From Escherichia phage KBNP1711, in the sequence record NC_023593.1: a stretch of 64,000 nucleotides of DNA; one strand, given 5' to 3'. The position numbers were made by a program, and so were the translations under genes. Shown piece after piece: positions 1,717 to 53,784 of the stretch. How positions within the stretch are numbered: position 1 is the first letter of the stretch; each line of letters opens with the position of its first letter. A model generated the notes under the pieces. The model made no database searches. It worked only from the letters and a program-made list of their open reading frames with translations, and was not told where the DNA came from.

Positions 1717-1745
1717 TATAGTGGTAATGTAAGAAGGAGAGAAAC

Positions 1746-2216
1746 ATGTTTGGTGAAAAAGGAGAACTCACGCCTCTACAGGTAGCTGAGATTACAGGAA
1801 GATTACCCGGAGTAACGGAAGAACTTGAATCCAAGGGTATGAACCCAAGCAATGGGAAGTTTCAAAAAGGAAATAAGTTTGGTAGACCAAAAGGTAGTAG
1901 AGGTAAGCTTACTCAGCTTATGTTAGACCGAGTAGCTTCTAGTCATTTGTCTCCTGATGAAGTGTTAATTCAAATTTACGAAGACCCTAATATTCCGCCT
2001 GATCTTAGATTCAAGGCTGCATCAAAAGTCGCAGATCTAGTTTACCCTAAGGCAGCTTCTGTTGAAATTAAGATGGAGGATGAGAATGCAATTAATGAGG
2101 AAACGTTGAATGCACAAATCAAGGATTTCTTGACCGGAGCTTTAGGTATTGATGTTATGCCTCCAGAAGACTCTGAGGACGCTGAAAAGGAGGAGGAAGC
2201 GGACGAGAGTAAATAA
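1746..2216 (+). CDS. putative terminase small subunit
   Basis: AAGGAGA RBS; position immediately upstream of large terminase; acidic C-terminus; no diagnostic motif. Confidence 0.35.
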   Translation: MFGEKGELTPLQVAEITGRLPGVTEELESKGMNPSNGKFQKGNKFGRPKGSRGKLTQLMLDRVASSHLSPDEVLIQIYEDPNIPPDLRFKAASKVADLVYPKAASVEIKMEDENAINEETLNAQIKDFLTGALGIDVMPPEDSEDAEKEEEADESK

Positions 2217-8690: not shown

Positions 8691-9217
8691 CAGTTGACAG
8701 TGTAACTGTTAGTCCTGCGTCTGTTGCTAGTCTTCAGACGGGGGCTACTCGGCAGTTCACTGCAATCGCGGAGAAAAGTGATGGTTCTACCGAAACAACT
8801 GGCTTTACTTGGTCAGTGACAGGAGGTGGTTCTATCACTCAGTCTGGTTTGTATACTGCTCCGAGTGCGGCTCAATCCACTGATGTGTCCATTACTGCAA
8901 CATTAGAAGATGTTTCTGGTACAGCAACCATTTCTGAAATTGTTGCTCCTGCTCCTACCATCGTATCTCGTGGTCCAATCGCAGATAAGGTAGGCGGTTC
9001 TACTACAGCTTTCACTACAATGTTTACCGTTACCAATTCAGCTGCTTCTAACTATACTTTCGTAGTAACTCCTCCGGGAGCTGGTTCTGTAAGTGCTGCC
9101 GGTCTTCTGACCTTGGCTGATGCTGCTTCTGGTGCTGTAAGTGTTAAAGCCACCCACTCTACGGTTTCGAGTGTTACGGCTACTTGTGAATTTACAGGTG
9201 TAACTCCAAAAGAGTAA
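7620..9217 (+). CDS. major capsid protein, extended form with C-terminal Ig-like (Big_2-like) domain via -1 frameshift
   Basis: Track ORF 8534..9217 is in the -1 frame and continuous across slippery heptamer 8672-8678. Confidence 0.6.
8672..8711 (+). promoter_or_regulatory. -1 programmed ribosomal frameshift signal
   Basis: Heptamer G_GGA_AAG, 9-nt spacer, 8-bp hairpin 'taacagtt gacagtgt aactgtta'. Confidence 0.6.
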
Positions 9218-9225
9218 AACTATAA

Positions 9226-9256
9226 AGGCTGCCTTCGGGTGGCCTTTTCTTGTTTT
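9226..9256 (+). terminator. rho-independent terminator after capsid gene
   Basis: 'aggctgcc ttcg ggtggcct' hairpin followed by T-rich run. Confidence 0.55.
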
Positions 9257-9278
9257 AAGACCTATACAAGCCAGTGTG

Positions 9279-9287
9279 TAATGTATA
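9279..9287 (+). promoter_or_regulatory. TAATGTATA motif (candidate phage promoter element)
   Basis: Exact motif 34 nt upstream of ATG 9321. Confidence 0.45.
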
Positions 9288-9320: not shown

Positions 9321-10067
9321 ATGGCGATGCCAGACGTTCAAAACCCAATTAATACCTACGGATGGCTTAAGAAGGCTGTGTCCCTCTGGGCTGACCGTGA
9401 CGACCCTGAATTTGTTAATCAAATTCCAAACTTTATTAACTTTGCAGAAAAGGAAATCTACCGTAATTTACGTATTCCTCCTCTGGAAAAAGAAGTCTAT
9501 TTAGATATTAAAGATGGTGTGGCTTTTATTCCACCAGATTACTTAGAAGCTCAGTGGATGATGAGATCTAAAGATGGTTTAATCTTCCGTGTAACCTCTC
9601 TCGAAGAAGTGGATTGGCTCAAACGTAATAACTCAGTCAACCCAACCAATTGGAATCAGGGAGAAGTTGTCTTTGCTCGTTTGGGTAGCCGGTTTATCTT
9701 CTACCCTGCAATTGAAGCAGATACTCCAGTTTACCCTGATGATGGCAGCCCTGAGATTCCAGCAGACAATGCGGTTATCCTCAGCTATTATGCTGACCCA
9801 CCAGAGTTTTGGGAAGATTCAGACACAAGTGCTATTCTTACTATCGCTCCAGAGCTTCTATTGTATTTTGCTTTACGTCATGCTTCCTTGTTTGTTCAGG
9901 ACGATAATGCAGTTCAGAAGTGGTCTGCTTTAGGTAAAGCCATTCTTGATGAAGTTGTTGAGCAGAGTAAGAAAGCAGAATACTCAGGTTCACCTTTAGT
10001 TATTCCTAACACGATTAGCCGTCTACATAGCTCTCGTGAAGTATATGGGATTCGTCGTTTTAGATAA
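9321..10067 (+). CDS. virion structural protein (possible head-tail adaptor/tail tubular protein)
   Basis: Position after capsid; strong GGAGGA RBS; no diagnostic motif. Confidence 0.4.
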   Translation: MAMPDVQNPINTYGWLKKAVSLWADRDDPEFVNQIPNFINFAEKEIYRNLRIPPLEKEVYLDIKDGVAFIPPDYLEAQWMMRSKDGLIFRVTSLEEVDWLKRNNSVNPTNWNQGEVVFARLGSRFIFYPAIEADTPVYPDDGSPEIPADNAVILSYYADPPEFWEDSDTSAILTIAPELLLYFALRHASLFVQDDNAVQKWSALGKAILDEVVEQSKKAEYSGSPLVIPNTISRLHSSREVYGIRRFR

Positions 10068-20727: not shown

Positions 20728-21762
20728 ATGGCATATGGAATATGGACAAGACCTGTTGGTCCAGGTCCGGCGGCACCTGCTGACATTTACATCGATAGTG
20801 GTAGCACGTTTCCTCAACTCAAGAATAGAGTTAGCGGTAACTTTGCATTTAGTGGAAACATATGTGACCTCCCTATAAACGGGTGGGATGGAAGTGGTCA
20901 AATAGTTATTGTCCCGACAGGTTCTGTGGTATGGGAAAGATACATACCGCCTAATGTGACCTCAGACGTATACTGGATAAACAATATCTCAGTTATTAAT
21001 AACTCTACTTTTCGAGTTACTATGGATTATAATGTTAATGGGTGGGTCTTTGATATGGCTTTTAATGTATATCAGATATGGCCTAGAGCTAATAGAAACT
21101 ACGGAATTACTTTTTCTAACACAGCTGATTACTTCTCTATTTCTGACTCTGGCACTGTTGGTCAGTGTATCTGGGCTTGGGAAGGTGATATAAACGGCTC
21201 TCTTCAGATACCAGATATTGGAGGTTTTGATATGAGCCGGGCAACTGTTTATGCAAACTGGAGTCACGGAGGGGCTGGGTTGTTGTATAACCCATCTAAC
21301 AGAGTTGTTTATGTGTACCAAAACAGATCTCACGATAATAGTAACACAAACCAAACAGGGTCTATTGGTGGTGTTAGGATTGCTGTTTTCTGCGATGGTT
21401 CTGGAGTACCAACTCACAACGGTGGCCTAAATATCTTTTCCCCAAATGGGTCTCAGTGCGTATTCTCTACCTACAGAACCCCTTTTAGTGTTGAAGGGTT
21501 TATGCCTATGAGTGGAGGTAATACATCTCTGGCCTATCCAATGATACCACTGTCTTATGGGGCTGGGGCTATACGAGGAAGTGCTAGTGGTTGGTACTTT
21601 CAACACACAAGATCTCATATGATGAATGGATCTTCTTTTGGGACAGGGTATGGAAGAATGATATACTCTTGGTCAAATCAGTATGATCTCGGTGGTGGGG
21701 GTGCTCTAGGATTAAGTATTCCGGTATTAGACGCCAAGAAGATTTTTAGAAGCATACAATAA
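20728..21762 (+). CDS. virion structural protein
   Basis: ORF track; structural context. Confidence 0.4.
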   Translation: MAYGIWTRPVGPGPAAPADIYIDSGSTFPQLKNRVSGNFAFSGNICDLPINGWDGSGQIVIVPTGSVVWERYIPPNVTSDVYWINNISVINNSTFRVTMDYNVNGWVFDMAFNVYQIWPRANRNYGITFSNTADYFSISDSGTVGQCIWAWEGDINGSLQIPDIGGFDMSRATVYANWSHGGAGLLYNPSNRVVYVYQNRSHDNSNTNQTGSIGGVRIAVFCDGSGVPTHNGGLNIFSPNGSQCVFSTYRTPFSVEGFMPMSGGNTSLAYPMIPLSYGAGAIRGSASGWYFQHTRSHMMNGSSFGTGYGRMIYSWSNQYDLGGGGALGLSIPVLDAKKIFRSIQ

Positions 21763-24614: not shown

Positions 24615-26279
24615 ATGCAACAAACTTCATACGCGTACCTCCGCAGTCGAGACCCACGCAATCAGATTTATGGTGTAAATCAGGGAGGGGCACAAGCCTC
24701 TCCTTATGTTCCTCGTCCTGCTTACCCACAAGCAGATATGTCTGTTTATACCCGTCCTAATATGGCTCCTGCTGGATTAGCTGGATTGGTTTCTCAGGCT
24801 AACGAAGATCAAGAAGCAATGCTTGGTCCAAACAAACAAATTGTTCAGGGTGCTAACATCCAACCTGATATCCCTAACGAAACTCCTGTAGCAGCTCCTC
24901 AGTCAGCTTCTCCTTTTGCTAACGATGAAAGCATGGTTGCTGCTGGCCTTTCTCCAGAAACTGCTTCTCAAGAGTTCTCAGACCCTCTGCCGGTAAGTGC
25001 TCCTCCTAAACCGTTGGAACCTACTGATACAGAGTTTACTCAAGACCAAGTTAAACAGGCACAACAGGTTATGTCAACCCTTTCTTCTGGTTTACCTGAA
25101 GCTGAAGGTATGGCAGGTGCTTCTCGTAGCGCTGACCAAGAACGTGTTAACAAGGATTTGATGGAAGTGGCTAAGGCTAAGAATCCGATGGAAGAGTGGG
25201 GTAAGCTACAGAAACAACCTTTCTATCAGAACTCTAGTTTCTATACAGGCTTGATGGGTGTAGGTCTTTCTATCATGTCCGGTAAATCCCCTATTGAAGC
25301 TTTCCAGATTGGCTCTGGTATGGCTGCACAGGATGAGACTAAGAATCAACTTGAAGCTAACCGCGAATCTCTTATCGAACAAGGTTACTCTCCAGACTCA
25401 GTTGCTGCTGCAATTGCTACTGGTGACCCTTCTGCTTTGAAGATTCGTCAGATTAGCCCTCAAGAGAAACTTGCTTTGTCTGCTATTGAAGATGAGAGAG
25501 CTAACCGTGAATGGGACAGACGTCAGCAGGTTAACGAACAGTCTATGAGTCGTAGAATGGATGCAACTCGTCAGGCTGCTGAACAGCGTGCACAAGAACA
25601 GTTTGCTCGTCAGAAAGATCTTATCAACTATCGTGATAAAGTGAAAGCTGATCGTGCTGAACAGATGGCTCAGAGTTTTAACTTTAATACGAAAGAGATT
25701 CGTAACGCCCAGAACACTGCTGAAGGCACGATTGCTAAACAGTGGGCAGAGAAAGGTGGTCTGTTTAACCAGTCTCATAAAGACTTGGACTTGGCTGATC
25801 AGGCAGTTAAGGATAAAGATTATCAGACAGCTCGTTCTGCTTACATGCAAGCAATTATGAACTCCGCAAGAGCTGAAATTGGTTCTACTCGTTCTCTAAC
25901 TGAAGAAGACTTACGTCACTTTGCAGAAGACCCTTCGATCTTTGTTAAGGTCGGTAATACTTGGTCTCTGAAAGGTGGGTACCGTCCCACTGATGCCGCT
26001 CTTGCTTATGCTCGTAAACAGGCAACTGTTGGTCACACTTCAGCGATGAAGGGTGTTAAGGATGCTAAGAGGGATACTATCAATGCTTATGTGGGTTCTG
26101 GTATGGATAAGAAACGTGCTACTGCACTTGTTAACCGTGCTATACCTTCTGGTGGTTTCTATGACCCGCTGGGTACATTTGAAGCACAGGCAGAAGAGGC
26201 TGTTGGTGGTGATGCTACTAATCCACGCCTGAATGGTGCTCTTTCAGCTTCTGAAGATACTAGCTGGTTCACTCAATAA
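24615..26279 (+). CDS. internal virion protein (hypothetical)
   Basis: GGAG RBS before ATG 24615 (track ORF starts 24552). Confidence 0.4.
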   Translation: MQQTSYAYLRSRDPRNQIYGVNQGGAQASPYVPRPAYPQADMSVYTRPNMAPAGLAGLVSQANEDQEAMLGPNKQIVQGANIQPDIPNETPVAAPQSASPFANDESMVAAGLSPETASQEFSDPLPVSAPPKPLEPTDTEFTQDQVKQAQQVMSTLSSGLPEAEGMAGASRSADQERVNKDLMEVAKAKNPMEEWGKLQKQPFYQNSSFYTGLMGVGLSIMSGKSPIEAFQIGSGMAAQDETKNQLEANRESLIEQGYSPDSVAAAIATGDPSALKIRQISPQEKLALSAIEDERANREWDRRQQVNEQSMSRRMDATRQAAEQRAQEQFARQKDLINYRDKVKADRAEQMAQSFNFNTKEIRNAQNTAEGTIAKQWAEKGGLFNQSHKDLDLADQAVKDKDYQTARSAYMQAIMNSARAEIGSTRSLTEEDLRHFAEDPSIFVKVGNTWSLKGGYRPTDAALAYARKQATVGHTSAMKGVKDAKRDTINAYVGSGMDKKRATALVNRAIPSGGFYDPLGTFEAQAEEAVGGDATNPRLNGALSASEDTSWFTQ

Positions 26280-26298
26280 GACCTAAGTCCTGCCTTCT

Positions 26299-26307
26299 AT
26301 AATGTAT
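26299..26307 (+). promoter_or_regulatory. TAATGTATA motif (candidate phage promoter element)
   Basis: Exact motif 38 nt upstream of ATG 26345. Confidence 0.45.
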
Positions 26308-26344
26308 ATAGGGGGTAGGACATTTTTATTTATAAGGAGACGTT

Positions 26345-29300
26345 ATGGCTAACATTAAATCTTGGGAAGAAGCATCGAAAAGCCCCAAGTATATGAATGC
26401 AACTCCTGAGCAACAGGCTCAGTTGAGAGAGCAATATAAAGCGGCAGGTGGTACAATCCCTGAAGATAAGCCAGTACAACCACAACAAGAAGAGCGTGGC
26501 TTAGTTGGTGAGTTCGCTCAGGGAGTGTCTAATGCTATCGAATCTGGTGGAGCTAGTATTGCAGCTAGTACCGCTCGTGGTTTAGGTGGTCTGGTTGAAA
26601 TGGGTGAGAACGTTCTCGGTTCCCAAACAAGTTATGGTAAAAGAATTCAAGATAACGCAAAACAAGTATTAGAAAAGCGTATGGCTGGTATCGAGGATGG
26701 CTTTGGTAAGACTGCTGGGCAGTATGCTGGAGTGGCTGCTGATATTGGTTTGACGGTTGCTAACCCAGCTTTAGCTGCTGGTGTTATTGCGGGTCGTGAA
26801 GCAGGTCGTGCTTATGCAGACCAGACTCCAGAAGAGGGAGAAGACAAGTCAGTGTTAGATGCTGCTCTTGTTGGTGGTGCTAACTTTGCAGCTCAGAAGA
26901 TTCTTCCGGGTTTTACAGGAACATCTGAATCTACTTTAGGTCGTATTGGTCAGAGTGCTGCTTCTAACGCCGTGGCTGGCGCTAAGGGTGGTGCTCTCGT
27001 AGGTGCTGCTGAAGCTCAGAACAAATATGGTGATGACACTACACTTGCCAATGTACTAGAAGGTGCAATTGATGAAGGTGTTGCTGGTGCTGCTTATGGT
27101 GGTGCTATCGGTGGTGTTCATGGTGCGATTAGTCGCCCTAGTCCTCAAGTGTTTGATAAGACTCCTGAGAATGTTAAGACTGATATCTCCGCTGAAGATG
27201 AAGCAATTCGTAGTGCGAAGAATGCTGATGAACTCCGTGAAGCTTACTCTCAAGCCGATACTGCTAACACAGCTTCCGCTCTTAACCTGCTAGACCAGAA
27301 CGATTTCCGTATTACAGATGCTGTGGCTATGGATTCTCCAGCTGCTCAACGTATCCTTAATACTGACCAGACTCGTGCTGAGAAAGCTGCTTCCTCTCTT
27401 ACAGAGCGTTCTAACATTCCGGGTCTTAATCCTCTTGCTTCTCCAAGTAAGGTCAAGGGTAAAGCTTTTGCGGATAACGAACATAACCAGAAGCAAGCTG
27501 TAGCAATGAAAGATGCAATGGCTGACTACACTAAAGACAACACCAAGACTCTTAATGATGTTCTTGATAACCTAGACCGAGAGTTGAATGACCTTCGTGT
27601 TCGTGGTGACTTTACTGGTAGTGCTATTGACATTAAGAATCAGACTCGCAATGATCGTGATTTCATTGATGCTTACAAGAACTTCTACACTGAAGCAAAC
27701 AGATTCAAAGCTCGTGATGGTGAAGACTTTAATAACTTTGTAGAGAAAGCTACTGAACTACAGAAACTTGCTGACAATGTTTCTCCAGAGATGAAGAAAG
27801 CTATTGGTGGTTTGAAGAAACTCAAAGGTATGCCTGAAGGTTTCAACCCTATCCAAGATGCCTTTACTCTGAACAACACAGCTAAGCTAATGAGTAACCA
27901 AGACCGTGGTTGGACGACACTGACAGATGATGGTTTCCGTGAAGCCTCTTCTCCAAGCTTTGTTATGAATACCCTAGGTGCTGCTAAGTATGCTCTGAAC
28001 CGCTTCTCTTCAGAGAGGGCTAGGTCTCAACGTGCTCGACAGCAGGATTCAAATAGTGAAGCAATTCGCTCTTTGGCTCGTGGTGATTTAGAGGTTGCTC
28101 GTGCTCGAAGTGCAGCAGCAAAAGCACGCGAAGAAATGGAAGCCGAACCGGTTGTTGATGACGTCCAATTTAAGACGCAAGCTGATGACCAAAATATGGC
28201 TGGTTCTGAACCCTCTTCTCCAGCTACTGTGACGGAAGATTTCTCTCCTTCTCCAGCTCCTTTAACTGCTCGTGATTTGGTTGCTCAAAGGCGTGCTATC
28301 CGACAGGCGGAACAACGTCGTGCAGAGGAAGAAGCACAAGCTGCTCAGAATGCTCCAGTTGAACCAGAAGCTCCAGCAGAAACTCTGCCTACGCGTAACC
28401 CTCTTGAGGAACGTAGAGTGCAAGAAGCTGAGATGGAACAACAGCGTGCAGCAGAAGAGGCTGCTAAAGCTCCTGAGACGCCCGTAGAAGAGCCTACAGC
28501 TAAAGCTGAGCCATTACCTGCTCGTGCTCCTAAAGCTCCTAAGGAAGCTGCTCCTGAGGTTAAACCGGCTACTGGTGTAGAGCGTCTTGCTGCTATGTCA
28601 ACAGCTGCTCGTCAGGCTACTAAAAACCGTGCTGAACGTTTTGCTCGTTCTCTGTATACTGCCGGTGCTAAAGCTAAAGCTACTGCGGAAAACTTCTTGG
28701 CTTATAAAGGGGACCCGAAAGAGCTGATGCGTCGTATCCGTCAGGAAGACCAAGCGAACAATGCTGCTCGTCATGAAGAGATGGCTCGTAACCAATTAGC
28801 TTCTCAGCAAGGTATTGCAGCTGCTAAGTCTAACCGAGTCCGTTCTGCATTCTCCGATTGGGTTAAAGAACGTGGGCTACCTTCTGAAATCGCCTCTAAA
28901 GCTCTTCGTGCTGAAGAACGTGGATTAGACGGTAACGTGTCAAGTCTAGACTCTCTGAAGCGCAGAGCTGAGCGTATGTATCAGAAAGAGCGTGATGATG
29001 AGTTTGATAGGATGTATCGTGAAGCTCTGGAAGAAAATAAAGCTTTCGATAAGAAAGATGCACCTAAGCTGAAAGATCAGAAGGCTGAGTTCCAGTCAGA
29101 GATTGATTCTCTGCTTGAGAGCGAACCTCTTCGTCCTGCTCAGAAAGATGCAATGCGTAAGATGATGAGTGATTTTGTTGATGGGAAGTTTAAAGCGGCT
29201 GAGAAAGCTGGAAGGGAAGAAGCTTTAGAGGTTGGTCAAATGAAGGACTTGTGGGATGGATTTATTAATACCTACAATCGTGAAGTTGGCATGTTCAATA

Positions 29301-30766
29301 AAGCTAACAAGAACTCTCAGTATGAAGCAGCAGCTAAGCATCTACAAGCTCGTGAAGAACGTCTTACCTCTTTACGTAACAGAGCAGAAGCTCGTGCTCA
29401 AGCGAAAGCTACAGCAGAAGCTGAACGTCAGTCACTCGAAGCTATTGCTGGTCAGAAGACTGAGATAGAGAAGATGTTTGATGCGTTACCTAAACCTGTC
29501 CGCGAGGCTCAGGAAAGCCGTACTCTGAAACAGCTTGCAGCTCACCATGATAAGAACTCCCCTGTTCCTCCAGAACGTTTCCGTAGTATTATCGAACGTA
29601 TCCACAACGCAGAGTCTGACTACCTTGATCGTAAGCGTCGTCTCACTGATGCAGAGGAAGATGCTCGTGAAGCTAAGTGGAACAAGATGTATGAACAAGC
29701 AGAGGAGATGAACCGTAAGTTCGATATAGATGCTCGTGTATCTCGTGATAAGAGCCTCAAAGAAGCCCAGGAGCGACAGAATGATCTCATGGCAGTACAA
29801 CGCCAACGTGATGACATTCACAGCCGTCTGGTGCGTTCTATCGAAGATAAGGGCATACCTAAAGCTGATGCTGAAGCATTTGCTGGTTCTTATATGGATA
29901 ATCGTTATGCTCTTCTTGAAAAACCTATGACCCCTACCGAACATCAGAATGCTCGTGCACGTATTGAGTCCGATGTAGAGAAGTTTGCTAAGAAGTATGA
30001 AAGCTTGTCTCCTATCGAGAAAGACGTGGTTAAGATTACTGGTGATGTGGAAGGTAAACTGGATGGGTTGGATGCTGAGACTGTGAAGGCAGTTGAGGAA
30101 GCTAGGAAGGTTGACTCTGATATTAAGAAACTTCAGGATGAAGAGTTGGAGATGGAGAAAGTCCGTTCAGCTTTACCTGATGATGAAAAGTCTCAGGCAA
30201 ATTCCGACATTCTGGAAAGCATTAAAAAACAAGAAGATAAGTTTGCAGGGAAGGTTGAGAAGGCATTCTTGGAAGGCAAGGACTTGAAGGAACTGGCTAG
30301 TGTTGCAGAGGTTCTGGATAGGGTTCATGGTGCTGACAAGGCTGGGAACAACCGTAGATTTGTTCGTGCTCTACAGACTGCTGCTGACAACAAGAAGAAG
30401 TATGGTGATAATCCGGTAGCTTGGTTTAGTGCTGATGATTACTCTGCTATTGCTAAACTTGGTGCTGCATCAGCGGGTGGTAACAAATCAAGAGCGTTGG
30501 AGAAGATCTTTGGTTCTACAGCAGATCAAGCTAAGGCTAAGCTTTTGGGGAGAGATGATGTAGCGAAGATTAGACGTGTGATTGAAGCGAATCCTGAAAT
30601 CAAGATTCCTTCTTACAAGACTACTACTCGTCAAGAGTATTTACAGTTCTTGGAGAAGTATAATGATGAGGGAGTGTTGAAAGTCAAACGTGGTTCTCTG
30701 TCTGACAAGTTGGAAAGGAATAAGCGTCAAGCTAGACTTCGTGTTAGAGTTCGCTCGAAAGAGTAA
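26345..30766 (+). CDS. large internal virion/ejection protein
   Basis: 1473 aa; Gly/Ala-rich hydrophobic segments then a long A/E/K/R coiled-coil region. Confidence 0.5.
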   Translation: MANIKSWEEASKSPKYMNATPEQQAQLREQYKAAGGTIPEDKPVQPQQEERGLVGEFAQGVSNAIESGGASIAASTARGLGGLVEMGENVLGSQTSYGKRIQDNAKQVLEKRMAGIEDGFGKTAGQYAGVAADIGLTVANPALAAGVIAGREAGRAYADQTPEEGEDKSVLDAALVGGANFAAQKILPGFTGTSESTLGRIGQSAASNAVAGAKGGALVGAAEAQNKYGDDTTLANVLEGAIDEGVAGAAYGGAIGGVHGAISRPSPQVFDKTPENVKTDISAEDEAIRSAKNADELREAYSQADTANTASALNLLDQNDFRITDAVAMDSPAAQRILNTDQTRAEKAASSLTERSNIPGLNPLASPSKVKGKAFADNEHNQKQAVAMKDAMADYTKDNTKTLNDVLDNLDRELNDLRVRGDFTGSAIDIKNQTRNDRDFIDAYKNFYTEANRFKARDGEDFNNFVEKATELQKLADNVSPEMKKAIGGLKKLKGMPEGFNPIQDAFTLNNTAKLMSNQDRGWTTLTDDGFREASSPSFVMNTLGAAKYALNRFSSERARSQRARQQDSNSEAIRSLARGDLEVARARSAAAKAREEMEAEPVVDDVQFKTQADDQNMAGSEPSSPATVTEDFSPSPAPLTARDLVAQRRAIRQAEQRRAEEEAQAAQNAPVEPEAPAETLPTRNPLEERRVQEAEMEQQRAAEEAAKAPETPVEEPTAKAEPLPARAPKAPKEAAPEVKPATGVERLAAMSTAARQATKNRAERFARSLYTAGAKAKATAENFLAYKGDPKELMRRIRQEDQANNAARHEEMARNQLASQQGIAAAKSNRVRSAFSDWVKERGLPSEIASKALRAEERGLDGNVSSLDSLKRRAERMYQKERDDEFDRMYREALEENKAFDKKDAPKLKDQKAEFQSEIDSLLESEPLRPAQKDAMRKMMSDFVDGKFKAAEKAGREEALEVGQMKDLWDGFINTYNREVGMFNKANKNSQYEAAAKHLQAREERLTSLRNRAEARAQAKATAEAERQSLEAIAGQKTEIEKMFDALPKPVREAQESRTLKQLAAHHDKNSPVPPERFRSIIERIHNAESDYLDRKRRLTDAEEDAREAKWNKMYEQAEEMNRKFDIDARVSRDKSLKEAQERQNDLMAVQRQRDDIHSRLVRSIEDKGIPKADAEAFAGSYMDNRYALLEKPMTPTEHQNARARIESDVEKFAKKYESLSPIEKDVVKITGDVEGKLDGLDAETVKAVEEARKVDSDIKKLQDEELEMEKVRSALPDDEKSQANSDILESIKKQEDKFAGKVEKAFLEGKDLKELASVAEVLDRVHGADKAGNNRRFVRALQTAADNKKKYGDNPVAWFSADDYSAIAKLGAASAGGNKSRALEKIFGSTADQAKAKLLGRDDVAKIRRVIEANPEIKIPSYKTTTRQEYLQFLEKYNDEGVLKVKRGSLSDKLERNKRQARLRVRVRSKE

Positions 30767-31840: not shown

Positions 31841-32642
31841 GCCATGACCACTCGAAGAGGTCTTCTGGTGTTTGACCTACGAATAGGAGACGAGCATTTT
31901 CAAGCATCTTTTCTTCCCATTCTGTATCAAACTTCTTATAATATTCCATTCGCACTATATGATAAAGAGTCCACTTATCATTTACACCTTGTAAAAGGTT
32001 GATAGCGGCTTTCTTTCCAACCCCTTGACGACGGAGTTGTAACTTACCTCCCCACATAACTTCCTCACGTTCACCACAACCGGGAATGTTATCTGTTCCA
32101 TCACCAATGAGCATTTGATAAAAGAAGTTTTGCCAAGCAACCTCATCTGATACATAGTGAGGAGGAACCTCTTTCTGTCTTTCTCCACATGCCCACCGAT
32201 AGTGCCATCCGGGAGTTATCAATAAGTCTTTGTCTCGTGTACAGATGATAGTGTTCTTGTCAGTTCGCTGTCTTTCTGCTAATGCATCATCAGCTTCTCT
32301 TCCATAAACATCTACATACTCGTAATTGTTTTTAATGTAGTCACCAACGTTCTGCCAGTGGAAAGGTCTTTCTCCCGGAGGTCGGTTGGCTTTGTATCCT
32401 TGCTGCTTTGCTACATCAAAACGGAAATTACCGCCTTCGCTGAAGTAGAAGATTGTCTTTCGACAGCCAGCGCGAGCAATGATTGTATCAAGTTTGTTTT
32501 GAAGTCGTTCAATTAGAAACCCATAATCTACTGGTGTACGTCCTGTATCCAGAAAAGGATGCTCCTGAGTCAGAGCACCCACTTCGTATCGGAGAACATC
32601 AGCATCCACTAGAGCTACTTCAGGATACTTAACGTCTTCCAT
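31803..32642 (-). CDS. 5'-3' exonuclease / flap endonuclease
   Basis: 'LVDADVL', 'GREADDALA', 'TRDKDLL', 'IGDGTDNIPG' acidic motifs of FEN/PIN nucleases. Confidence 0.6.
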   Translation of the reverse strand: MEDVKYPEVALVDADVLRYEVGALTQEHPFLDTGRTPVDYGFLIERLQNKLDTIIARAGCRKTIFYFSEGGNFRFDVAKQQGYKANRPPGERPFHWQNVGDYIKNNYEYVDVYGREADDALAERQRTDKNTIICTRDKDLLITPGWHYRWACGERQKEVPPHYVSDEVAWQNFFYQMLIGDGTDNIPGCGEREEVMWGGKLQLRRQGVGKKAAINLLQGVNDKWTLYHIVRMEYYKKFDTEWEEKMLENARLLFVGQTPEDLFEWSWLDKIWNKDIDNG

Positions 32643-32643
32643 A

Positions 32644-33180
32644 TCACTCCCCTAAAAGTTTACGAACTTCTTTCTTGAATGTTTCATACTCTTCAGGGTA
32701 TTCAAACCCACACTCTAACATTGCATAGTGAACAACCTTAAGCAAGTCTTGAACCTTGTTCTTATCTTTGTGTCGATAAGCATACTTGATCATGTTACAT
32801 TGCTGGAAATTAAGCTGAGGGTTAGCTGCATAGAATTCAATAGGTTGAATCTTCTTGGAGTCAGGGTCATAATGAGCACCGCCAACCATTACATCTAGTG
32901 CTGGACTTCTTTGGCTAGTCTTCTCAGTTGTATTCTTAAAACTGACCACAGGAACAGAAGAGTAAACTATATACTCTTCCCCTACTGGTGGTTTTACTCT
33001 TAGTCCACGCATGGCATATTCAATCTTTATGTCAGCGGAACCTGAAGCGACCTCTTCAATAGATTTTCGATAGCTGTCAATAACTGCCCTTAGCATAGAG
33101 ATTGTTTTGGTCATATCTTTTACTTTCTCATTCAGTACAACAATCTCTGATTCTTTGAAATCGAACAAATTCATTTCCAC
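32644..33180 (-). CDS. DUF3310-like phage protein
   Basis: 'QPIEF...NMIKYAYRHKDK' resembles the DUF3310 signature (recalled). Confidence 0.3.
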   Translation of the reverse strand: MEMNLFDFKESEIVVLNEKVKDMTKTISMLRAVIDSYRKSIEEVASGSADIKIEYAMRGLRVKPPVGEEYIVYSSVPVVSFKNTTEKTSQRSPALDVMVGGAHYDPDSKKIQPIEFYAANPQLNFQQCNMIKYAYRHKDKNKVQDLLKVVHYAMLECGFEYPEEYETFKKEVRKLLGE

Positions 33181-33563
33181 TCTCCAATGATTTCCATATC
33201 AAATTTATCTCCTTTCTTCGTAAGGAGTATTGCCGGTTTATCTTTACTTTTCATATACTCAAACATGTGCAGAGACCCTCTTGACTCTCCATCCCAGAAG
33301 ACTATTGCTGAGTCAGCATACTCTCCCATGTCTACGTTTCGAAGGATACCAGCTTTCTTTCCTAAGGTTGTCCAAGAAGGGATAAACCTTTTAACCCCAA
33401 GGCCGTTGTGCTTAGCAACAATCTCTCCGTGAGAGTCTGGCCCTGTTGCTCCTCCTGATACAACTTCAGTGAAGAGCTTAGGTATTTCTTTGGGGAGTAA
33501 ATCCCACATCTGAATAAAAGAAGGCCAGTCAATAGACCGGCTTCCTGCTATAATCACTTTCAT
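33171..33563 (-). CDS. SLOG/DUF2493-like Rossmann protein
   Basis: 'VIIAGSR...SGGATGPD' N-terminal pattern (recalled). Confidence 0.3.
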   Translation of the reverse strand: MKVIIAGSRSIDWPSFIQMWDLLPKEIPKLFTEVVSGGATGPDSHGEIVAKHNGLGVKRFIPSWTTLGKKAGILRNVDMGEYADSAIVFWDGESRGSLHMFEYMKSKDKPAILLTKKGDKFDMEIIGEWK

Positions 33564-33564
33564 A

Positions 33565-34206
33565 TTAAGACCCTTGGAATTCTTCTTTGTCGAAGTGCTT
33601 CTCTACCACATACTCATACAGATCTTTATACTCTGCATAACGACGGTAGAATGTACCGTGTGAGATGCCTAATTCTTTCTGAATGGAATCGTGAGGGATA
33701 CCTAAGAAGAGCATTGAGAACATGCTTGCGAGCTTCTGTGTGTCCATTGTATCACTCAAATCTTGGAAGAAGTAGAAGATACGAGATTCCATGAAAGGGT
33801 CCCCAACTGAATCATGCTTATTAACTGCATATTCCAGAGGACCTTCTGAGTAAATGTCAGGGTTGTTAAACATATCTGCTTCTGGAATAGCATAGATACG
33901 TCGATCACCAACTGTCTGTCGATTAGAACGGATAGACCAGATGATATTCTTCACACGATAGGTCATGTGCTCAATCTCTACCTCACCTTCTAGTAGAAGC
34001 TCTTCTTGCTTGGAATAGATGAAACGCCAAGCATTAAGCAACACCTCTTGAGCTACATCCTCTGCTTCATGATAGTCACGAATGTCGTACATAAAGAATT
34101 TGTGAACCACTTTCCAGTTCACCTTATAGAACTCATCGAAGGTTGGGAAGTATTTGATTGGAATACCGTGAATACGATACCGAGTAGGTGTTGTTTTCTT
34201 AGCCAC
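33565..34206 (-). CDS. ECF-type sigma factor-like protein
   Basis: Region 2-like '[16 protein letters not shown]'; region 4-like HTH '[17 protein letters not shown]'. Confidence 0.5.
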
Positions 34207-34236
34207 AAGTTATCCTTAACTTTGTTGGTTTTAAAT

Positions 34237-34446
34237 TTATACGCTGATCAAGTAAATAGCCGTTTCGGGGTTTGGTGTGTGTTGTTGTGGTGTTCCGAGG
34301 ATACGAATCCACTCATCGTTTTCTGGTTCGTAATACAACCAAGCATCTGTGAATTTGAAAGTTTTTCCAAACACTTTGTTATCGTGTTCCCAAATTACGT
34401 GAACATTTCGAGTTCCTTGTGGTAGAACTGATTGCGCTCTAATCAT
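34237..34446 (-). CDS. hypothetical small protein
   Basis: ORF track only. Confidence 0.3.
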   Translation of the reverse strand: MIRAQSVLPQGTRNVHVIWEHDNKVFGKTFKFTDAWLYYEPENDEWIRILGTPQQHTPNPETAIYLISV

Positions 34447-34706
34447 TGGATACCTCTTTCTTTCAGAGCCTCTATTAACCCGTTGTGGTTAGCAGCACAC
34501 TCTGTGTATTGGTCTTGATACCACTCTAGTGTTGTTGATAGTGCAACACCTTGTGGACCTTCTAGCATCGGTAAATCTACCCTACACTCAGCTTTTAGGT
34601 TTGTTGGTAAGGGCATTAATTGCCTGCTGTTGTCGCTCATTGAACAACTTGACATACTCATCACTAGCGCAAACATTATAAAAAACTGGCTTAGTCTTTT
34701 CATAGT
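34443..34706 (-). CDS. lipoprotein, o-spanin-like
   Basis: Signal peptide 'MKRLSQFFIMFALVMSMSSC', Pro-rich mature part; start embedded in the upstream gene. Confidence 0.35.
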   Translation of the reverse strand, partial: TMKRLSQFFIMFALVMSMSSCSMSDNSRQLMPLPTNLKAECRVDLPMLEGPQGVALSTTLEWYQDQYTECAANHNGLIEALKERGIQ

Positions 34707-34938
34707 GCATCTCTTTGTAAACTGTCTCAGTGTTCTTCTTCCAGTCTGATAGACCATTGAGAACTCTCATAGCAACCTCATCAGCTGCTTTGTTTCTCTC
34801 TATCTCTAATTCTTGCTGATGTTTCTCTTTGTCCAGATTGTTACTATCTGTTTGGTATTCGTTAAACTTCATACCACCAAAGAACACAAGAGCTGAAAAG
34901 ACGATGAACCCTAAGTTATCGCTTAACGTGTTTTGCAT
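34588..34938 (-). CDS. membrane-anchored coiled-coil protein, i-spanin-like
   Basis: N-terminal TM 'LGFIVFSALVFFGG' then charged helical region; overlaps the lipoprotein gene out of frame. Confidence 0.35.
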   Translation of the reverse strand: MQNTLSDNLGFIVFSALVFFGGMKFNEYQTDSNNLDKEKHQQELEIERNKAADEVAMRVLNGLSDWKKNTETVYKEMHYEKTKPVFYNVCASDEYVKLFNERQQQAINALTNKPKS

Positions 34939-34949
34939 ATTATCTCCAA

Positions 34950-34975
34950 CGAAAAAAGCCACCCGAAGGTGGCTA
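34950..34975 (-). terminator. rho-independent terminator (- strand)
   Basis: 'agccacc cgaa ggtggct' hairpin with U-run on the - strand. Confidence 0.5.
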
Positions 34976-34996
34976 AACTATTACAAGGAGAGATAC

Positions 34997-35737
34997 TTAG
35001 AACGGAGATTCGTCTTCTTCAAAAGTAGACTCAGGCTCACGGTCGATAGTAGGGATAGAAGCAACCGGCTCTTTCTGCTCGTTCTCAGAAGCCTTAGTGA
35101 CTTCACGACCAGCGAGAGGAATGTTCTTAGCGTCATTAGCTTGGGTAAGCAGGTTACGCTGGAATGGGAAGATTACCTGGTAAGCAGCTACGTTATCATC
35201 TGTTTCAGCATACGGTTCGAAGAAGACCAAAGGACTGCGAGCAGCAGCAACAGCTTCACGATACTTGGTAGGAATCGGAGTAATCTGTTTGATAGAATTC
35301 TTAACTTCACCAGCTTTGTTGGTGTAAGAGTTAATCAGAACGTTTACAGGCTGACCTAACAGCATTTCTTTAAACCAAGCTAAATCACCTTTCAGTGCTT
35401 GGATGCTAGGGTCAACCATCTTAATTAGGTTGAGAATACCAGAGTTCTTAGCTCGTGGGTTTACATCGAAGCTCTTAAATTGACATGCAGGGCGCGGGTC
35501 AAGAGCGTTGCCTTCAGAGTCCTTACCGGTTGCATCAACACTAATCAGTTCAAACGCCAAGTCCATACGGAAAGCTGGGTTCTTAGGAGTAACTGCTTTA
35601 GTTTTAGGGTCAACCCAAGGGTCACGATTGTGAACACCAAGACCAACAACACGAACGATACGAGCTTCGTACTCACCATCAGGGATTACGTCGTAGTTGG
35701 ATTTACGGGAAACGGACATAGTTGGGATAGAAGACAT
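34997..35737 (-). CDS. single-stranded DNA-binding protein-like
   Basis: Acidic C-terminal tail ending in Phe ('EEDESPF'), as in SSB proteins. Confidence 0.45.
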   Translation of the reverse strand: MSSIPTMSVSRKSNYDVIPDGEYEARIVRVVGLGVHNRDPWVDPKTKAVTPKNPAFRMDLAFELISVDATGKDSEGNALDPRPACQFKSFDVNPRAKNSGILNLIKMVDPSIQALKGDLAWFKEMLLGQPVNVLINSYTNKAGEVKNSIKQITPIPTKYREAVAAARSPLVFFEPYAETDDNVAAYQVIFPFQRNLLTQANDAKNIPLAGREVTKASENEQKEPVASIPTIDREPESTFEEDESPF

Positions 35738-35794
35738 ATTTTAATTTCCTTATTTAATTTAAGATTGTTGCTCACTTTGAGCGGTTATGTATAG

Positions 35795-35803
35795 TATACA
35801 TTA
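35795..35803 (-). promoter_or_regulatory. TAATGTATA motif (- strand)
   Basis: + strand 'tatacatta'; 58 nt upstream of SSB-like gene start. Confidence 0.4.
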
Positions 35804-35866
35804 CACCTATACCGATAAGAGTGCTATGTAGTATAAGCATCAGTGGTAGTAGATATTGACTACTAG

Positions 35867-35875
35867 TAATGTATA
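35867..35875 (+). promoter_or_regulatory. TAATGTATA motif (+ strand, faces away from flanking genes)
   Basis: Exact motif in the 414-bp intergenic region. Confidence 0.3.
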
Positions 35876-35970
35876 TATTGTATAGATGATAATTCTATTG
35901 CAGGCTTGTATATTGGGCAATTCTCAGAATCCCTTGCAAGTACCGAAGGGCAGGAGACACCTGCGAGATA

Positions 35971-36038
35971 AAAATAGAGAATTAAGGAATCCTTGATTTA
36001 GGTTGTGGGGACTCCTAGGGACTTTGATTCTCTATTTA
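35971..36038. repeat. inverted repeat flanking a 45-nt spacer
   Basis: 'aaaatagagaat' ... 'attctctattt'. Confidence 0.4.
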
Positions 36039-36151
36039 AAAGATTAATAATTACTTACTACCTAAATAGTTAACTAACTTACTTAAACCAAATTCAATAA
36101 TAATAGATAAAAAGATTATTCCTAAGAAAGCTAAGATGTAAAGAACATAAG

Positions 36152-36319
36152 TTACCATTCCATCATTCCTTTTAATCTAGATTCTTCTACTATTCGCTGA
36201 TAAAGTAAGTTAGATTCAGCTTGATCTTTTAATATCTTACTATATTGATCTCTGAGACTATCTTTATAAACAACAGGTGGTTTAAATAGTGATGATACCT
36301 TGTTCTTTTCTTCTTTCAT
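36152..36319 (-). CDS. hypothetical small protein
   Basis: Track ORF 36152..36403 trimmed to an internal Met. Confidence 0.25.
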   Translation of the reverse strand: MKEEKNKVSSLFKPPVVYKDSLRDQYSKILKDQAESNLLYQRIVEESRLKGMMEW

Positions 36320-36788
36320 CAAAGGTCTTCCTAATCTCTTGCAGAGATACAGCTTTAAAGTTGATTTGTTCCATCGAAGTACAGAAGTATCTCCAATCAT
36401 CAATCACATGATTATGAGTATGAGCATAGATGTTGAACTTCCCTCTCATTTCATCAGAGTGAATAGGAATGTGAGTTACCCAAAACTCTTTGTACTTGAA
36501 GTCACCTGATACAGTTCTGAACACTTTCATAATCTGTGGTAATAAATCCAGCCTGTCATGGTTCCCTAAGACAAGATGTTTCTCACCCTTAATCTCATAG
36601 ATGATATCCAGTGCATATGGTTCAAACACCCAATCACCAGTAAAGAAAGTCTTATCACGTTTAGTCACATGGTCAAACGCTGAAAGAATTGCTTTGTCAT
36701 GTTCTTCAATACTGCCGAACTGTTTACGAAACTTGCAGATGTTACGATGACCTAAGTGACCATCTCCTGCGAAATATACCTCAGCCAT
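36282..36788 (-). CDS. metallophosphoesterase (calcineurin-like)
   Basis: 'GDGHLGH', 'GDWV', 'GNHD', 'HTHNH' metal-binding motifs. Confidence 0.65.
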   Translation of the reverse strand: MAEVYFAGDGHLGHRNICKFRKQFGSIEEHDKAILSAFDHVTKRDKTFFTGDWVFEPYALDIIYEIKGEKHLVLGNHDRLDLLPQIMKVFRTVSGDFKYKEFWVTHIPIHSDEMRGKFNIYAHTHNHVIDDWRYFCTSMEQINFKAVSLQEIRKTFDERRKEQGIITI

Positions 36789-42900: not shown

Positions 42901-43215
42901 TTAACTTGAGCTTAAAGCCCCTTTGCGACCGCCAGCTGATTTTCCAGCGCGATCTCCACTTTTGCCGCCAGCTGAACGATTTCCGCTGACTGTCTCAACA
43001 CGTAAGTTGCTTGACGCATTAGAGCCTCCTGATTTAATGGCTCGTTTGTGTCCGACATCTTTACCTTTGAGTGCAGATTTTCCAACGCGTTTTTCAACGA
43101 TGCGACGTGCACGGTGGCGCTGAGCATCTCCGCTCTTACTTCCAACTCCCGTTTCACCTCTTGCGATGGCTGTACGTCTTTCTTGTGCATAATCTCTTTT
43201 AGCCTTATCAGTCAT
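42901..43215 (-). CDS. basic Gly/Ser/Lys/Arg-rich protein (possible nucleic-acid-binding)
   Basis: Strong AAGGAG RBS; TAATGTATA motif 37 nt upstream. Confidence 0.45.
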   Translation of the reverse strand: MTDKAKRDYAQERRTAIARGETGVGSKSGDAQRHRARRIVEKRVGKSALKGKDVGHKRAIKSGGSNASSNLRVETVSGNRSAGGKSGDRAGKSAGGRKGALSSS

Positions 43216-43251: not shown

Positions 43252-43260
43252 TATACATTA
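43252..43260 (-). promoter_or_regulatory. TAATGTATA motif (- strand)
   Basis: + strand 'tatacatta' upstream of 42901..43215. Confidence 0.45.
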
Positions 43261-46669: not shown

Positions 46670-47254
46670 TTAGTAAGACACGTCACCACTGGAGTGGGAC
46701 ATGTTGCTCTTGACGAAGTAACAGAACTTTCCAAGACCTTCATTAATTTCTTGAAGCATACTCTGATCAACTGGATAGGTGCACAAGTCTGAATCAAACT
46801 CGTCCATCTTCTCAATGATACACATAAGAGTCATGCACATGTCAGAAAGCATACCGTCCATGTCGAGATCAGCGTTACCTTCTCGGAACCAAGCACAACC
46901 AAGATAGCTACTAGCTGTTGCATCCACTTTAATGCAGTGATAACGCATTCGCTCTGCTACCCGATCACCAGTTTCACGAGCATAATCTTCTAGTTCATCG
47001 AACATACCGTGAACACCTTGGAAACCAGCTCCAGAGACGTTCCAGTGATAGTTCTTTGATTTGATGTGTAGAAGTTCAAGGTTAGCCTGCACACCACACA
47101 GGATGTGCTCTAGGCTGTTACCGCTAATCAATTTATTCATTCCCTCTAGACGAGAGATAGAAGAGTCAGTTGTAGAGAATGGGTTGCTAGAACCCACTCG
47201 TGTCAGTTCAGGTAAGTCGAAGACATTATTATGCATTAGGTTCATCTCCTTCAA
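46670..47254 (-). CDS. Dps/ferritin-like protein
   Basis: 'ANLELLHIKSKNYHWNVSGAGFQGVHGMFDELEDYARETGDRVAERM' resembles the Dps di-iron site helix pair. Confidence 0.45.
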   Translation of the reverse strand: MKEMNLMHNNVFDLPELTRVGSSNPFSTTDSSISRLEGMNKLISGNSLEHILCGVQANLELLHIKSKNYHWNVSGAGFQGVHGMFDELEDYARETGDRVAERMRYHCIKVDATASSYLGCAWFREGNADLDMDGMLSDMCMTLMCIIEKMDEFDSDLCTYPVDQSMLQEINEGLGKFCYFVKSNMSHSSGDVSY

Positions 47255-47558
47255 GCTCAGTAGAGTTAGCTACATTTCGTTCCAGATTTGAGATTACCTG
47301 TTGGGTGATAACGATGCAGTTCTGTGGGTCAACTGACTTAGAACGTCCCATCTCAGGGTCATACACCTTAACACGTTTTGCTGTAGAACCAGTTACCTGT
47401 AATACCTTGAGAAGATAACCCTGATTCCCGATAGACCATGCAACAACATCACGATTCTTGATGAATCGACCAAGCATATCACGATGATAGAACTGCTGCA
47501 TAACCTTTGATTTATTAATCTCTTCGGCTGGCGGAGCCACTTTACTCAAATCTAACAT
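47229..47558 (-). CDS. hypothetical protein
   Basis: ORF track; variant AAATGTATA motif about 40 nt upstream. Confidence 0.35.
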   Translation of the reverse strand: MLDLSKVAPPAEEINKSKVMQQFYHRDMLGRFIKNRDVVAWSIGNQGYLLKVLQVTGSTAKRVKVYDPEMGRSKSVDPQNCIVITQQVISNLERNVANSTELEGDEPNA

Positions 47559-47630
47559 TTCACTCTCTCCTGTTTAACACAATATTCTTATACTGTATAT
47601 ACATTTGAGAGTGATCATATCTACTACCAA

Positions 47631-53362: not shown

Positions 53363-53545
53363 CTATGCTGTGAAGTTTTTGATTACACCGCAAATAACAT
53401 CTGTTTCAAACGTACCCACCAGAACATCGTCTCGGTAGAAGTTAATCGCTCTACCGTCTCGGTTAAAGTGATCTGCTTCAATGAGCATTGACTGTACCTG
53501 ACCATCTGGAGTGGAGGTTCGAAAGATGACGTTATACTGACTCAT
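53363..53545 (-). CDS. hypothetical small protein
   Basis: ORF track. Confidence 0.3.
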   Translation of the reverse strand: MSQYNVIFRTSTPDGQVQSMLIEADHFNRDGRAINFYRDDVLVGTFETDVICGVIKNFTA

Positions 53546-53784
53546 AAAGAAGTTACTCCCTTATCTTCTTGGGCGATAGAGATGATACGACTCACACACT
53601 GCATTGAGTACTCATCTCCACGCTTTAGGAACGTTACGATAGCAGAGAATTGATTACCAATCATCCGCTCATTTGTGATACCGAACTCTTTGCAGAGTTC
53701 TTTCAGTTTGCTACGAGAACCAATAATCAGAGGCTCTTTTTCTTCAGTCATTCCGCGACTAATCAAATCTTCAATAGACAACAT
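53542..53784 (-). CDS. hypothetical small protein
   Basis: ORF track. Confidence 0.3.
   Translation of the reverse strand: MLSIEDLISRGMTEEKEPLIIGSRSKLKELCKEFGITNERMIGNQFSAIVTFLKRGDEYSMQCVSRIISIAQEDKGVTSL

Follow-up and report, generated by a model that had tools for sequence, protein, structure and literature searches.

Coliphage phiEco32 encodes the sigma factor gp36 and the protein gp79, which inhibits the sigma70 holoenzyme and acts as a stabiliser and activator of the gp36 holoenzyme (PMC12276001). The nonamer TAATGTATA was determined experimentally as the consensus of the gp36-dependent promoters of the phiEco32 genes 6, 13, 26, 40, 58 and 68 (PMC4331800). Three of these promoters are middle and three are late promoters, with the motif located 6–8 nt before the start sites, according to the passage in PMC4281155 that cites Pavlova 2012. 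The AATGTA core of the motif is centred at −11.5 (PMC12276001). In vitro, the promoters P26 and P68 are transcribed by RNA polymerase (RNAP) with gp36, and gp79 stimulates this transcription 3- to 4-fold, 4-fold in the case of P26 (PMC12276001). P68 is also the promoter present in the cryo-EM open complex 9M7Y, in which the gp36 residues R187 and Y186 read −37G and −34A (PMC12276001). For the more distant Salmonella phage 7-11, a related promoter motif has been predicted (PMC4331800).

Here we analysed a stretch of 64,000 nt, the window, which covers most of a phiEco32-like coliphage genome (Gordonclarkvirinae) and is closest to phage EP335. Summed over the aligned parts, identity of the window amounts to 93.7% with EP335 and 79% with phiEco32. 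In the region 33000–36500, identity reaches 96.9% to EP335, 95.9% to KarlSchell_Bas89 (Bas89) and ~83% to ~90 other phiEco32-like coliphages. The gene order is that of phiEco32: the plus strand carries the structural and late genes, which extend to ~30.8 kb, and beyond this point the minus strand carries the middle and early genes. The sigma/promoter system described below is that of gp36/gp79, already known from phiEco32, in a phage closely related to EP335. What is new is a single item, a candidate seventh promoter that is aimed at a strongly conserved non-coding stretch. The features are compiled in Table 1.

Table 1. Features of the window; promoter classes and start sites (+1) are predictions.
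Feature	Position	Strand	Predicted +1	Elements and context
P6-type late promoter, −10 element	1725..1733	+	~1740	TAATGTAAG; upstream of gene 1746..2216, terminase/portal genes
P13-type late promoter	9256..9287	+	~9294	box TAAGACCTA at 9256-9264, TAATGTATA at 9279-9287; gene 9321..10067
P26-type late promoter	26277..26308	+	~26315	TAAGACCTA at 26277-26285, TAATGTATA at 26300-26308; gene 26345..30766 downstream
Phage sigma factor gene, phiEco32 gp36 orthologue	33565..34206	−		ORF list, PDB and PHROG matches
Intrinsic terminator-like hairpin	34957..34974	−		AGCCACCTTCGGGTGGCT plus T-run; directly 3' of the gene-40 orthologue
P40-type middle promoter, −10 element	35795..35803	−	~35788	gene 34997..35737
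Seventh gp36-type promoter (candidate)	35844..35875	+	~35882	TGGTAGTAGATAT at 35844-35856, 10-nt spacer, TAATGTATA at 35867-35875
Conserved non-coding stretch	35882..36045	+		5' hairpin at the predicted +1, variable hairpin module, invariant ~100 nt (35945-36045)
P58-type middle promoter, −10 element	43252..43260	−	~43245	gene 42901..43215; orthologous to phiEco32 42937(−)
P68-type middle promoter	47598..47629	−	~47591	−35 box TGGTAGTAGATAT at 47617-47629, 10-nt spacer, AAATGTATA at 47598-47606; gene 47229..47558
phiEco32 gp79 orthologue	53542..53784	−		tblastn and PDB match

A first-pass annotation, made from the sequence, had proposed a phage sigma factor at 33565..34206 without naming its strand, which is the minus strand. 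The product of this reading frame has 213 aa, starts from a GTG codon with AAGGA upstream and matches chain F of PDB entry 9M7Y over its full length (residues 1–212 with chain residues 1–211, E=1.1e-121). It shares 178 of 212 residues (84%) with phiEco32 gp36, and both peptides that had been quoted as region 2-like and region 4-like segments are present in the translation. All 20 contact residues of phiEco32 gp36 named in PMC12276001 are identical in the product. They comprise D44, E47, E49, D50 and E54, which contact the clamp helices; E79, H80, Y83, R84, W90, S91, S94 and N95 at the −10 region; M138, I142, F166, L167 and F204 at the flap-tip helix; and Y186 and R187 at the −35 region. We regard the encoded protein as a gp36-type sigma factor because it aligns over its full length with 9M7Y chain F and all described contact residues are kept.

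A sigma-like profile match had been named in the first-pass annotation as a check of its proposal. Such a match was obtained with PHROG 1740, 'RNA polymerase sigma factor' (E=4.8e-46), while the general sigma profiles scored below their thresholds: Pfam Sigma70_r2 gave E=0.0026 and 18 bits (cut-off 24), and TIGR02937 (sigma70-ECF) matched residues 23–191 with E=1.5e-5 and 24.7 bits (cut-off 42.9). The Pfam profile search returned no match to Sigma70_r4 in this product. Judged by these profiles, the protein is a distant relative of the ECF factors that scores below the level of ECF (group 4) membership.

The terminator-like hairpin at the end of the gene-40 orthologue separates P40 from the sigma gene; in the genomes of phages Paul and 4E8 a terminator is annotated at the corresponding position. 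Directly upstream of the sigma gene (34206) we found no convincing sigma70 promoter. The sole candidate, ATGAAA-17-TATAAT at 34703–34675, lies within the spanin gene and was not considered convincing. In the records of EP335 and Bas89 the sigma gene is called from an internal ATG, so that the product has 175 aa and lacks the first 38 residues, and in the EP335 record it is labelled 'hypothetical protein'. The N-terminus of the solved gp36 chain agrees with the 213-aa form, including the 38 residues that are missing from the 175-aa calls.

The partner protein is encoded as well. The product of 53542..53784 on the minus strand shares 72.5% identity with phiEco32 gp79 in a tblastn comparison and matches PDB 9M7Y chain G and 9M7Z with E=4.2e-36. 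The phage combines an orthologous sigma factor with its contact residues, cognate promoter sequences at orthologous sites and the gp79 partner, as expected for a gp36-type system.

On both strands of the whole window, the exact motif TAATGTATA occurs six times (9279+, 21063+, 26300+, 35795−, 35867+ and 43252−); dinucleotide shuffling predicts 0.48. Among 100 shuffles the maximum was three copies, and none attained six. Five of the six copies are intergenic, in a window with an intergenic share of ~6.8% under a crude gene model; by our own arithmetic, the binomial probability of at least five intergenic copies among six is ~8e-6. The first-pass annotation was right in regarding the motif as a phage-specific promoter element, since it is the published gp36 consensus. 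The positions given there for the copies at 9279-9287(+), 35795-35803(−), 35867-35875(+) and 43252-43260(−) are correct, as is that of a one-mismatch variant at 47598-47606(−), which reads AAATGTATA; the copy placed at 26299-26307 is located at 26300-26308. The distance between motif end and start codon is 33, 36, 57 and 36 nt at the four sense sites and 39 nt at the 47598 variant, in agreement with the spacing of 34–58 nt reported before. Two sites were absent from that annotation, the exact copy at 21063-21071(+) and the P6-type site TAATGTAAG at 1725-1733(+).

The genome of phiEco32 carries the exact nonamer at 9101+, 26014+, 36632−, 36704+ and 42937− and variant sites at P6 (TAATGTAGA, 1677+) and P68 (AAATGTATA, 46862−). 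The exact motif is found at the same five orthologous places in each of phiEco32, EP335 and Bas89. The copy at 21063+ is of a different kind. It is situated within the gene 20728..21762, the gene-21 orthologue, and at the equivalent site EP335 and Bas89 have TAACGTTTA and phiEco32 has CAACGTATA, the differences from these relatives falling at apparently synonymous positions only. With its intragenic location and its lack of conservation in EP335, Bas89 and phiEco32, it was treated as a chance occurrence in coding sequence and not as a promoter.

It could be argued that all copies of the nonamer reflect chance or the AT-rich composition of intergenic regions instead of functional promoter elements. 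The intragenic, non-conserved copy at 21063+ would be in line with this view, and so would the number of one-mismatch variants of the motif, which are not enriched (16 versus 17.9 expected). With one-mismatch variants at chance level, the assignment of the sites 1725 and 47598 is based on their orthology to phiEco32 sites and not on counts. However, the six exact copies far exceed the 0.48 expected and were matched by none of the 100 shuffles, all relatives checked keep the five intergenic copies at orthologous positions amid variable flanks, and the orthologous sites of phiEco32 are mapped promoters validated in vitro (PMC4331800, PMC12276001, PMC4281155). Taken together, an origin by chance or base composition is extremely improbable.

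Compared site by site, the window holds positional orthologues of all six published phiEco32 promoters. The arrangement of phiEco32-type phages to which the first-pass annotation had pointed was indeed found, the sense-oriented copies listed there being orthologous to P13, P26, P40, P58 and P68. P6 joins them; it is among the gp36 promoters in PMC4331800, and the same terminator-like GGGAGGCTTTTT precedes the P6 site in the window and in phiEco32. The sites at 1725, 9279, 26300, 35795, 43252 and 47598 are all intergenic, in sense orientation and upstream of a gene. The motif had been assigned to 'late and other genes'; the location upstream of genes held, and the classes, by analogy to phiEco32, would be three late and three middle promoters.

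The degree of conservation differs between the sites. At P13, the motif and the upstream box are identical in phiEco32 (9101), Bas89 and EP335, and the target gene encodes a virion structural protein (PHROG 2941). P26 of the window equals phiEco32 P26 without any difference from about −41 to +25, and for P68 there is a single substitution between −45 and −7. At P40, the −10 element is invariant in 10 relatives, and its upstream (−35) region is not conserved, with 1 of 33 columns invariant.

With regard to the upstream region, three classes can be distinguished: P13 and P26 possess TAAGACCTA (−38 to −30), P68 possesses TGGTAGTAGATAT (−38 to −26) and P40 is without a conserved box. No −35 box is common to all promoters, and the shared feature is the AATGTA −10-like element. 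If an equal distance between the −10 element and the start site is assumed for the numbering, G at −37 together with A at −34 is present at P6, P58, P68 and the candidate seventh promoter, and A at −37 at P13, P26 and P40.

A further reading is that the motif serves the host sigma70 holoenzyme or another phage DNA-binding protein and that the frame 33565..34206 encodes a helix-turn-helix (HTH) regulator. The sigma matches in Pfam and NCBIfam, being below their thresholds, could be taken in favour of such a regulator, and in the SU10 genome paper it was proposed that the sigma70 holoenzyme may also use middle promoters (PMC4281155). But the alignment of the frame spans the full length of the chain that takes the place of sigma in a solved structure of the RNAP open complex, and the frame retains every residue contacting AATGTA in 9M7Y. 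The motif comes without a TATAAT, and gp79, a blocker of the sigma70 holoenzyme, is encoded too. We therefore consider this reading very improbable. Almost certainly, the gp36 orthologue acts as a phage sigma factor that binds E. coli core RNAP and, together with the gp79 orthologue, reads TAATGTATA-type promoters of late and middle genes.

What is said here of RNAP binding, start sites and temporal class is transferred from the phiEco32 experiments to the window, and the transcription programme may be envisaged as follows. Early genes would be read by the sigma70 holoenzyme, as concluded from work on phiEco32. The gp79 orthologue would then occupy the RNA exit channel and displace sigma70 region 4, by which host and early transcription would be turned off, and it would stabilise the C-terminal domain of the gp36 orthologue. 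The N-terminal, sigma2-like domain would recognise and melt the −10-like element (T)AATGTA(TA), centred near −11.5, with W90 and Y83 stacking at the fork junction and A−14, A−13, T−12 and G−11 being read. The C-terminal, sigma4-like domain would be kept in place by the flap-tip helix and by gp79 and would contact the −35 region. This holoenzyme would fire at the late structural genes from 1725, 9279 and 26300 on the plus strand and at three middle transcription units from 35795, 43252 and 47598 on the minus strand.

The copy at 35867+ had been listed as an oppositely oriented one. It exists, is not a stray and resembles a seventh promoter of the P68 type. It is an intergenic nonamer, but there is no gene downstream of it on the plus strand. 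The site is located in the gap of 313 nt that separates the gene-40 orthologue from the next gene on the minus strand, diverges from P40 at a distance of 63 nt and is antisense to the minus-strand middle genes. The 13-mer TGGTAGTAGATAT has two copies in the window, one at this site and one at P68, with the same spacing to the −10 element. Its placement at 35844-35856 puts a G at −37 and an A at −34, the bases that are contacted by gp36 R187 and Y186 at P68.

The −35 and −10 elements of the candidate are invariant in 10 relatives belonging to at least three named genera (those aligned being phiEco32, Bas89, SU7, 4E8, MN05, SR02, Bas87, Paul, SGF2 and the window), and each of the four complete phiEco32-like genomes of IMG/VR has them as well. 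ES17 has a small gene inserted between P40 and the seventh promoter; the promoter is kept with two changes in the box, and G−37 and A−34 are retained. The site is absent from the promoter lists of PMC4331800, of the SU10 supplementary table, which has six sites, and of PMC12276001; Pavlova 2012 may describe it. The promoter search in PMC4331800 was confined to the sense strand of intergenic regions. Our literature search yielded no transcriptomic study of a phiEco32-like phage.

Downstream of the candidate promoter, a conserved non-coding stretch begins with a 5' hairpin, the first base of which coincides with the predicted +1 (~35882). It is followed by a variable hairpin module existing in two alternative versions and by the element 35945-36045, which contains a GCAGG-N5-CCTGC hairpin and a long hairpin with a 14-bp stem. 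Among 11 genomes, 89% of the columns of this element are invariant, compared to 39% at the third positions of the gene-40 codons (p=3e-19 in a Fisher test against the element), 89% at their second positions, which equals the element, and 3% in the spacer between P40 and the seventh promoter. Taken in full, the 313-nt gap shares 92.7% identity with phiEco32, and the genes around it share ~83%.

Among the sequences compared, the arms of the 5' hairpin occur as ATAGA/TCTAT, ATAGCT/AGCTAT, ATAGCT/AGTTAT, AGAGTT/AACTCT and ATAGTT/AACTAT. Pairing is seen in 98% of the cells of this alignment, both partners change in two of the pairs, and the covariation score was reached by none of 500 shuffles. These data are suggestive of a hairpin that is maintained by compensatory changes in a small sample of related sequences. 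The element is missing from a more divergent IMG/VR locus (67% gene-40 identity) and from Grimontviridae phages, so that covariation could be assessed on the 5' hairpin only. Predicted folding gave −43.6 kcal/mol (z=−2.05) for the plus strand and −35.2 for the minus strand, and several G·U pairs of the long stem are possible on the plus strand only.

Searches for a known RNA or a different origin of the element gave the following results. No Rfam family was matched, neither by the whole window at the gathering threshold nor by 35740-36140 at E<=10, and ARAGORN reported no tRNA or tmRNA. A blastn search of 35876-36052 against 5,426 E. coli genomes revealed no similarity, and the complementarity of the element to the rest of the window was restricted to matches of <=12 nt, which is chance level. 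A coding role was rejected: ATG 35886 opens a frame of 36 codons in the window only, the relatives have CTG or CTA at this position, and indels break the frame. The window contains no dispersed repeats besides the promoter boxes. The GC skew tracks gene orientation and is uninformative with respect to an origin.

Our preferred reading of 35867+ is a gp36-driven non-coding transcript from the plus strand. The site would be a seventh gp36-dependent promoter from which, starting at ~35882, a middle or late RNA with a 5' stem-loop and the invariant ~100-nt domain 35945-36045 is made, antisense to the middle genes and specific to the Gordonclarkvirinae of E. coli. We give this reading a chance that falls just short of even. 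Possible roles of such an RNA include that of a regulatory or antisense RNA or of a replication-priming transcript, and its 5' stem-loop would be protective.

A competing reading, which is a serious one though we place it distinctly below an even chance, holds that 35867+ is not the promoter of a functional RNA. In that case, 35945-36045 would act at the DNA level as an origin or protein site, or it would be a minus-strand terminator or the 3' end of the upstream middle operon, and the promoter-like site would be incidental or serve in replication priming. Origins built on phage promoters are a feature of T4 and T7, which counts for a function at the DNA level. Moreover, no other true non-coding gap in the window is as large as this one of 313 nt, and the plus strand has no intrinsic terminator behind the element. 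When the minus strand is read, a TTTTTAT comes after the long hairpin. Yet the conservation extends on both sides of this minus-strand T-run, and neither iterons nor repeated boxes resembling those of an origin were found at the element. Also against the competing reading, the −35 and −10 elements of the plus strand are invariant and survive the adjacent gene insertion in ES17, the covarying hairpin with its plus-strand-only G·U pairs begins at the predicted +1, and it is the plus strand that folds better.

For the known part of the system, the result re-identifies a textbook-level phage transcription switch (gp36/gp79) in a close relative, and its practical value is in annotation: it concerns the 'hypothetical' label in EP335, the truncated calls in EP335 and Bas89 and six promoters with predicted starts. 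The seventh promoter, if real, would define an unrecognised transcription unit, possibly giving rise to a non-coding RNA or an origin-priming transcript. The transcription programme of the model system phiEco32 is considered fully mapped, and a seventh unit, if real, would add to it.

Among known systems, homologues of the sigma and gene-40 proteins are present in Salmonella phage 7-11 and Privateervirus (Grimontviridae), and in vB_CsaP_009 and 3H10_20 an AATGTA core is located upstream of the gene-40 homologue, as in the window. These phages differ in that the sigma gene directly follows gene 40 and in that the gap upstream of gene 40 measures ~75–100 nt and is without a divergent promoter or conserved element. 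With the ECF (group 4) sigma70 factors, the window protein shares the two-domain composition of sigma2-like and sigma4-like parts within ~200 aa, and the PDB chain is named 'ECF sigma factor'; in contrast to these, its partner is the activator and appropriator gp79 and not an anti-sigma factor, and its promoters have an AATGTA −10-like element without a −35 box common to all.

A likeness to the T4 AsiA/MotA appropriation, to which the phiEco32 system was compared in PMC12276001, consists in a small phage protein that remodels or displaces sigma70 region 4 and thereby switches promoter classes. As with the T4 late sigma factor gp55, promoters of the later class are defined mainly by a single −10-like element. 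Unlike in T4, a complete replacement sigma factor (gp36) is used here and stabilised by gp79, and the proteins are unrelated in sequence to those of T4.

Much closer are EP335 (Nieuwekanaalvirus) and KarlSchell_Bas89, with ~94–97% nucleotide identity, the same gene order and the same five exact motif copies. From the phiEco32 gp36/gp79 system itself (Pavlova et al. 2012; 9M7Y/9M7Z, PMC12276001), the window differs in details. The sigma gene starts with ATG in phiEco32 and with GTG here, ~16% of the gp36 residues differ, mostly in the inter-domain linker, the window lacks phiEco32 gene 37 (Appr-1-p processing) between its sigma and spanin genes, the upstream regions of P58 are not alike, and the window has an additional, non-conserved intragenic motif copy at 21063. 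The promoter consensus, the contact residues, all six promoter positions and the genome layout are the same in both phages.

Beside the six published promoters of the phiEco32 sigma factor gp36 (the late P6, P13 and P26 and the middle P40, P58 and P68), the window carries a putative seventh promoter of this type, which is absent from the accessible published promoter lists and unchanged across every relative compared. Its -35 box and spacing are identical to those of P68, and it points in the opposite direction to P40, the two being divergent. The predicted +1 coincides with the start of a 5′ hairpin that shows covariation; this hairpin is followed by a variable hairpin module and then by a non-coding element of ~100 nt, conserved at the level of second codon positions. 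In MN05, ES17 and ECBP2-like genomes the first hairpin module 3′ of the promoter is swapped for an unrelated hairpin-forming sequence, and some Kuravirus genomes have a small gene inserted between P40 and the seventh promoter; the loci concerned are ES17 (1282-1425) and IMG/VR L024.

The late promoters P13 and P26 share an upstream box that differs from the box of P68 and the seventh promoter, and the region upstream of P40 lacks conservation; hence the gp36 promoters form at least three upstream classes. These might be tied to whether a promoter fires in the middle or the late phase, or to dependence on gp79, the partner protein of gp36. At the P6-type promoter only 12 nt separate the motif end from the ATG, and an AAGGAG upstream of the gene overlaps the promoter. 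Transcription from the predicted start, ~7 nt past the motif, would yield a nearly leaderless mRNA devoid of AAGGAG. The exact motif copy within the gene-21 orthologue, which encodes a membrane protein, is not accompanied by a matching -35 box, and EP335, Bas89 and phiEco32 do not share it. Most likely it arose by chance; in principle it could be a weak internal gp36 start, peculiar to this phage.

Features of the gp36-type promoters and the sigma gene region (window coordinates unless a record is named)
Feature	Position	Strand	Details
P6-type motif and gap to ATG	1725-1745	+	upstream of gene 1746..2216
Upstream box, P13	9256-9264	+	TAAGACCTA, -38 to -30
Upstream box, P26	26277-26285	+	TAAGACCTA, -38 to -30
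Exact TAATGTATA copy	21063-21071	+	within gene-21 orthologue 20728..21762
Sigma gene	33565-34206	-	GTG start, 213 aa
Sigma gene, EP335 (NC_070979)	33498-34025		internal ATG, 175 aa
Sigma gene, Bas89 (PQ850613)	32232-32759		internal ATG, 175 aa
Region between gene 40 and sigma gene	34207-34996	-	
ORF with lipoprotein-like N-terminus	34443-34757	-	MKRLSQFFIMFALVMSMSSCS; other frame than Rz-like i-spanin gene
Seventh gp36-type promoter and non-coding element	35844-36045	+	TGGTAGTAGATAT, 10-nt spacer, TAATGTATA

The GTG-initiated form of the sigma factor agrees with the solved gp36 chain (9M7Y_F) through the whole of that chain's N-terminus. The shorter, ATG-initiated calls come from the public records of EP335 and Bas89, the phages closest to this one, and the EP335 record labels the gene 'hypothetical protein'. 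No clear promoter candidate for the sigma gene was found between it and gene 40. The Rz-like i-spanin gene (34588-34938, -) is overlapped by the lipoprotein-like ORF, an arrangement consistent with an o-spanin/i-spanin pair, and this candidate pair sits among middle genes, away from the holin and endolysin at ~15.1-15.9 kb. phiEco32 gene 37, which codes for an Appr-1-p processing enzyme, has no counterpart in this region. Between P40 and gene 40 on one side and the spanin and sigma genes on the other lies a strong terminator-like hairpin (34957-34974). In the Grimontviridae relatives (L031-L033) the gene-40 homologue is followed directly by the sigma gene.
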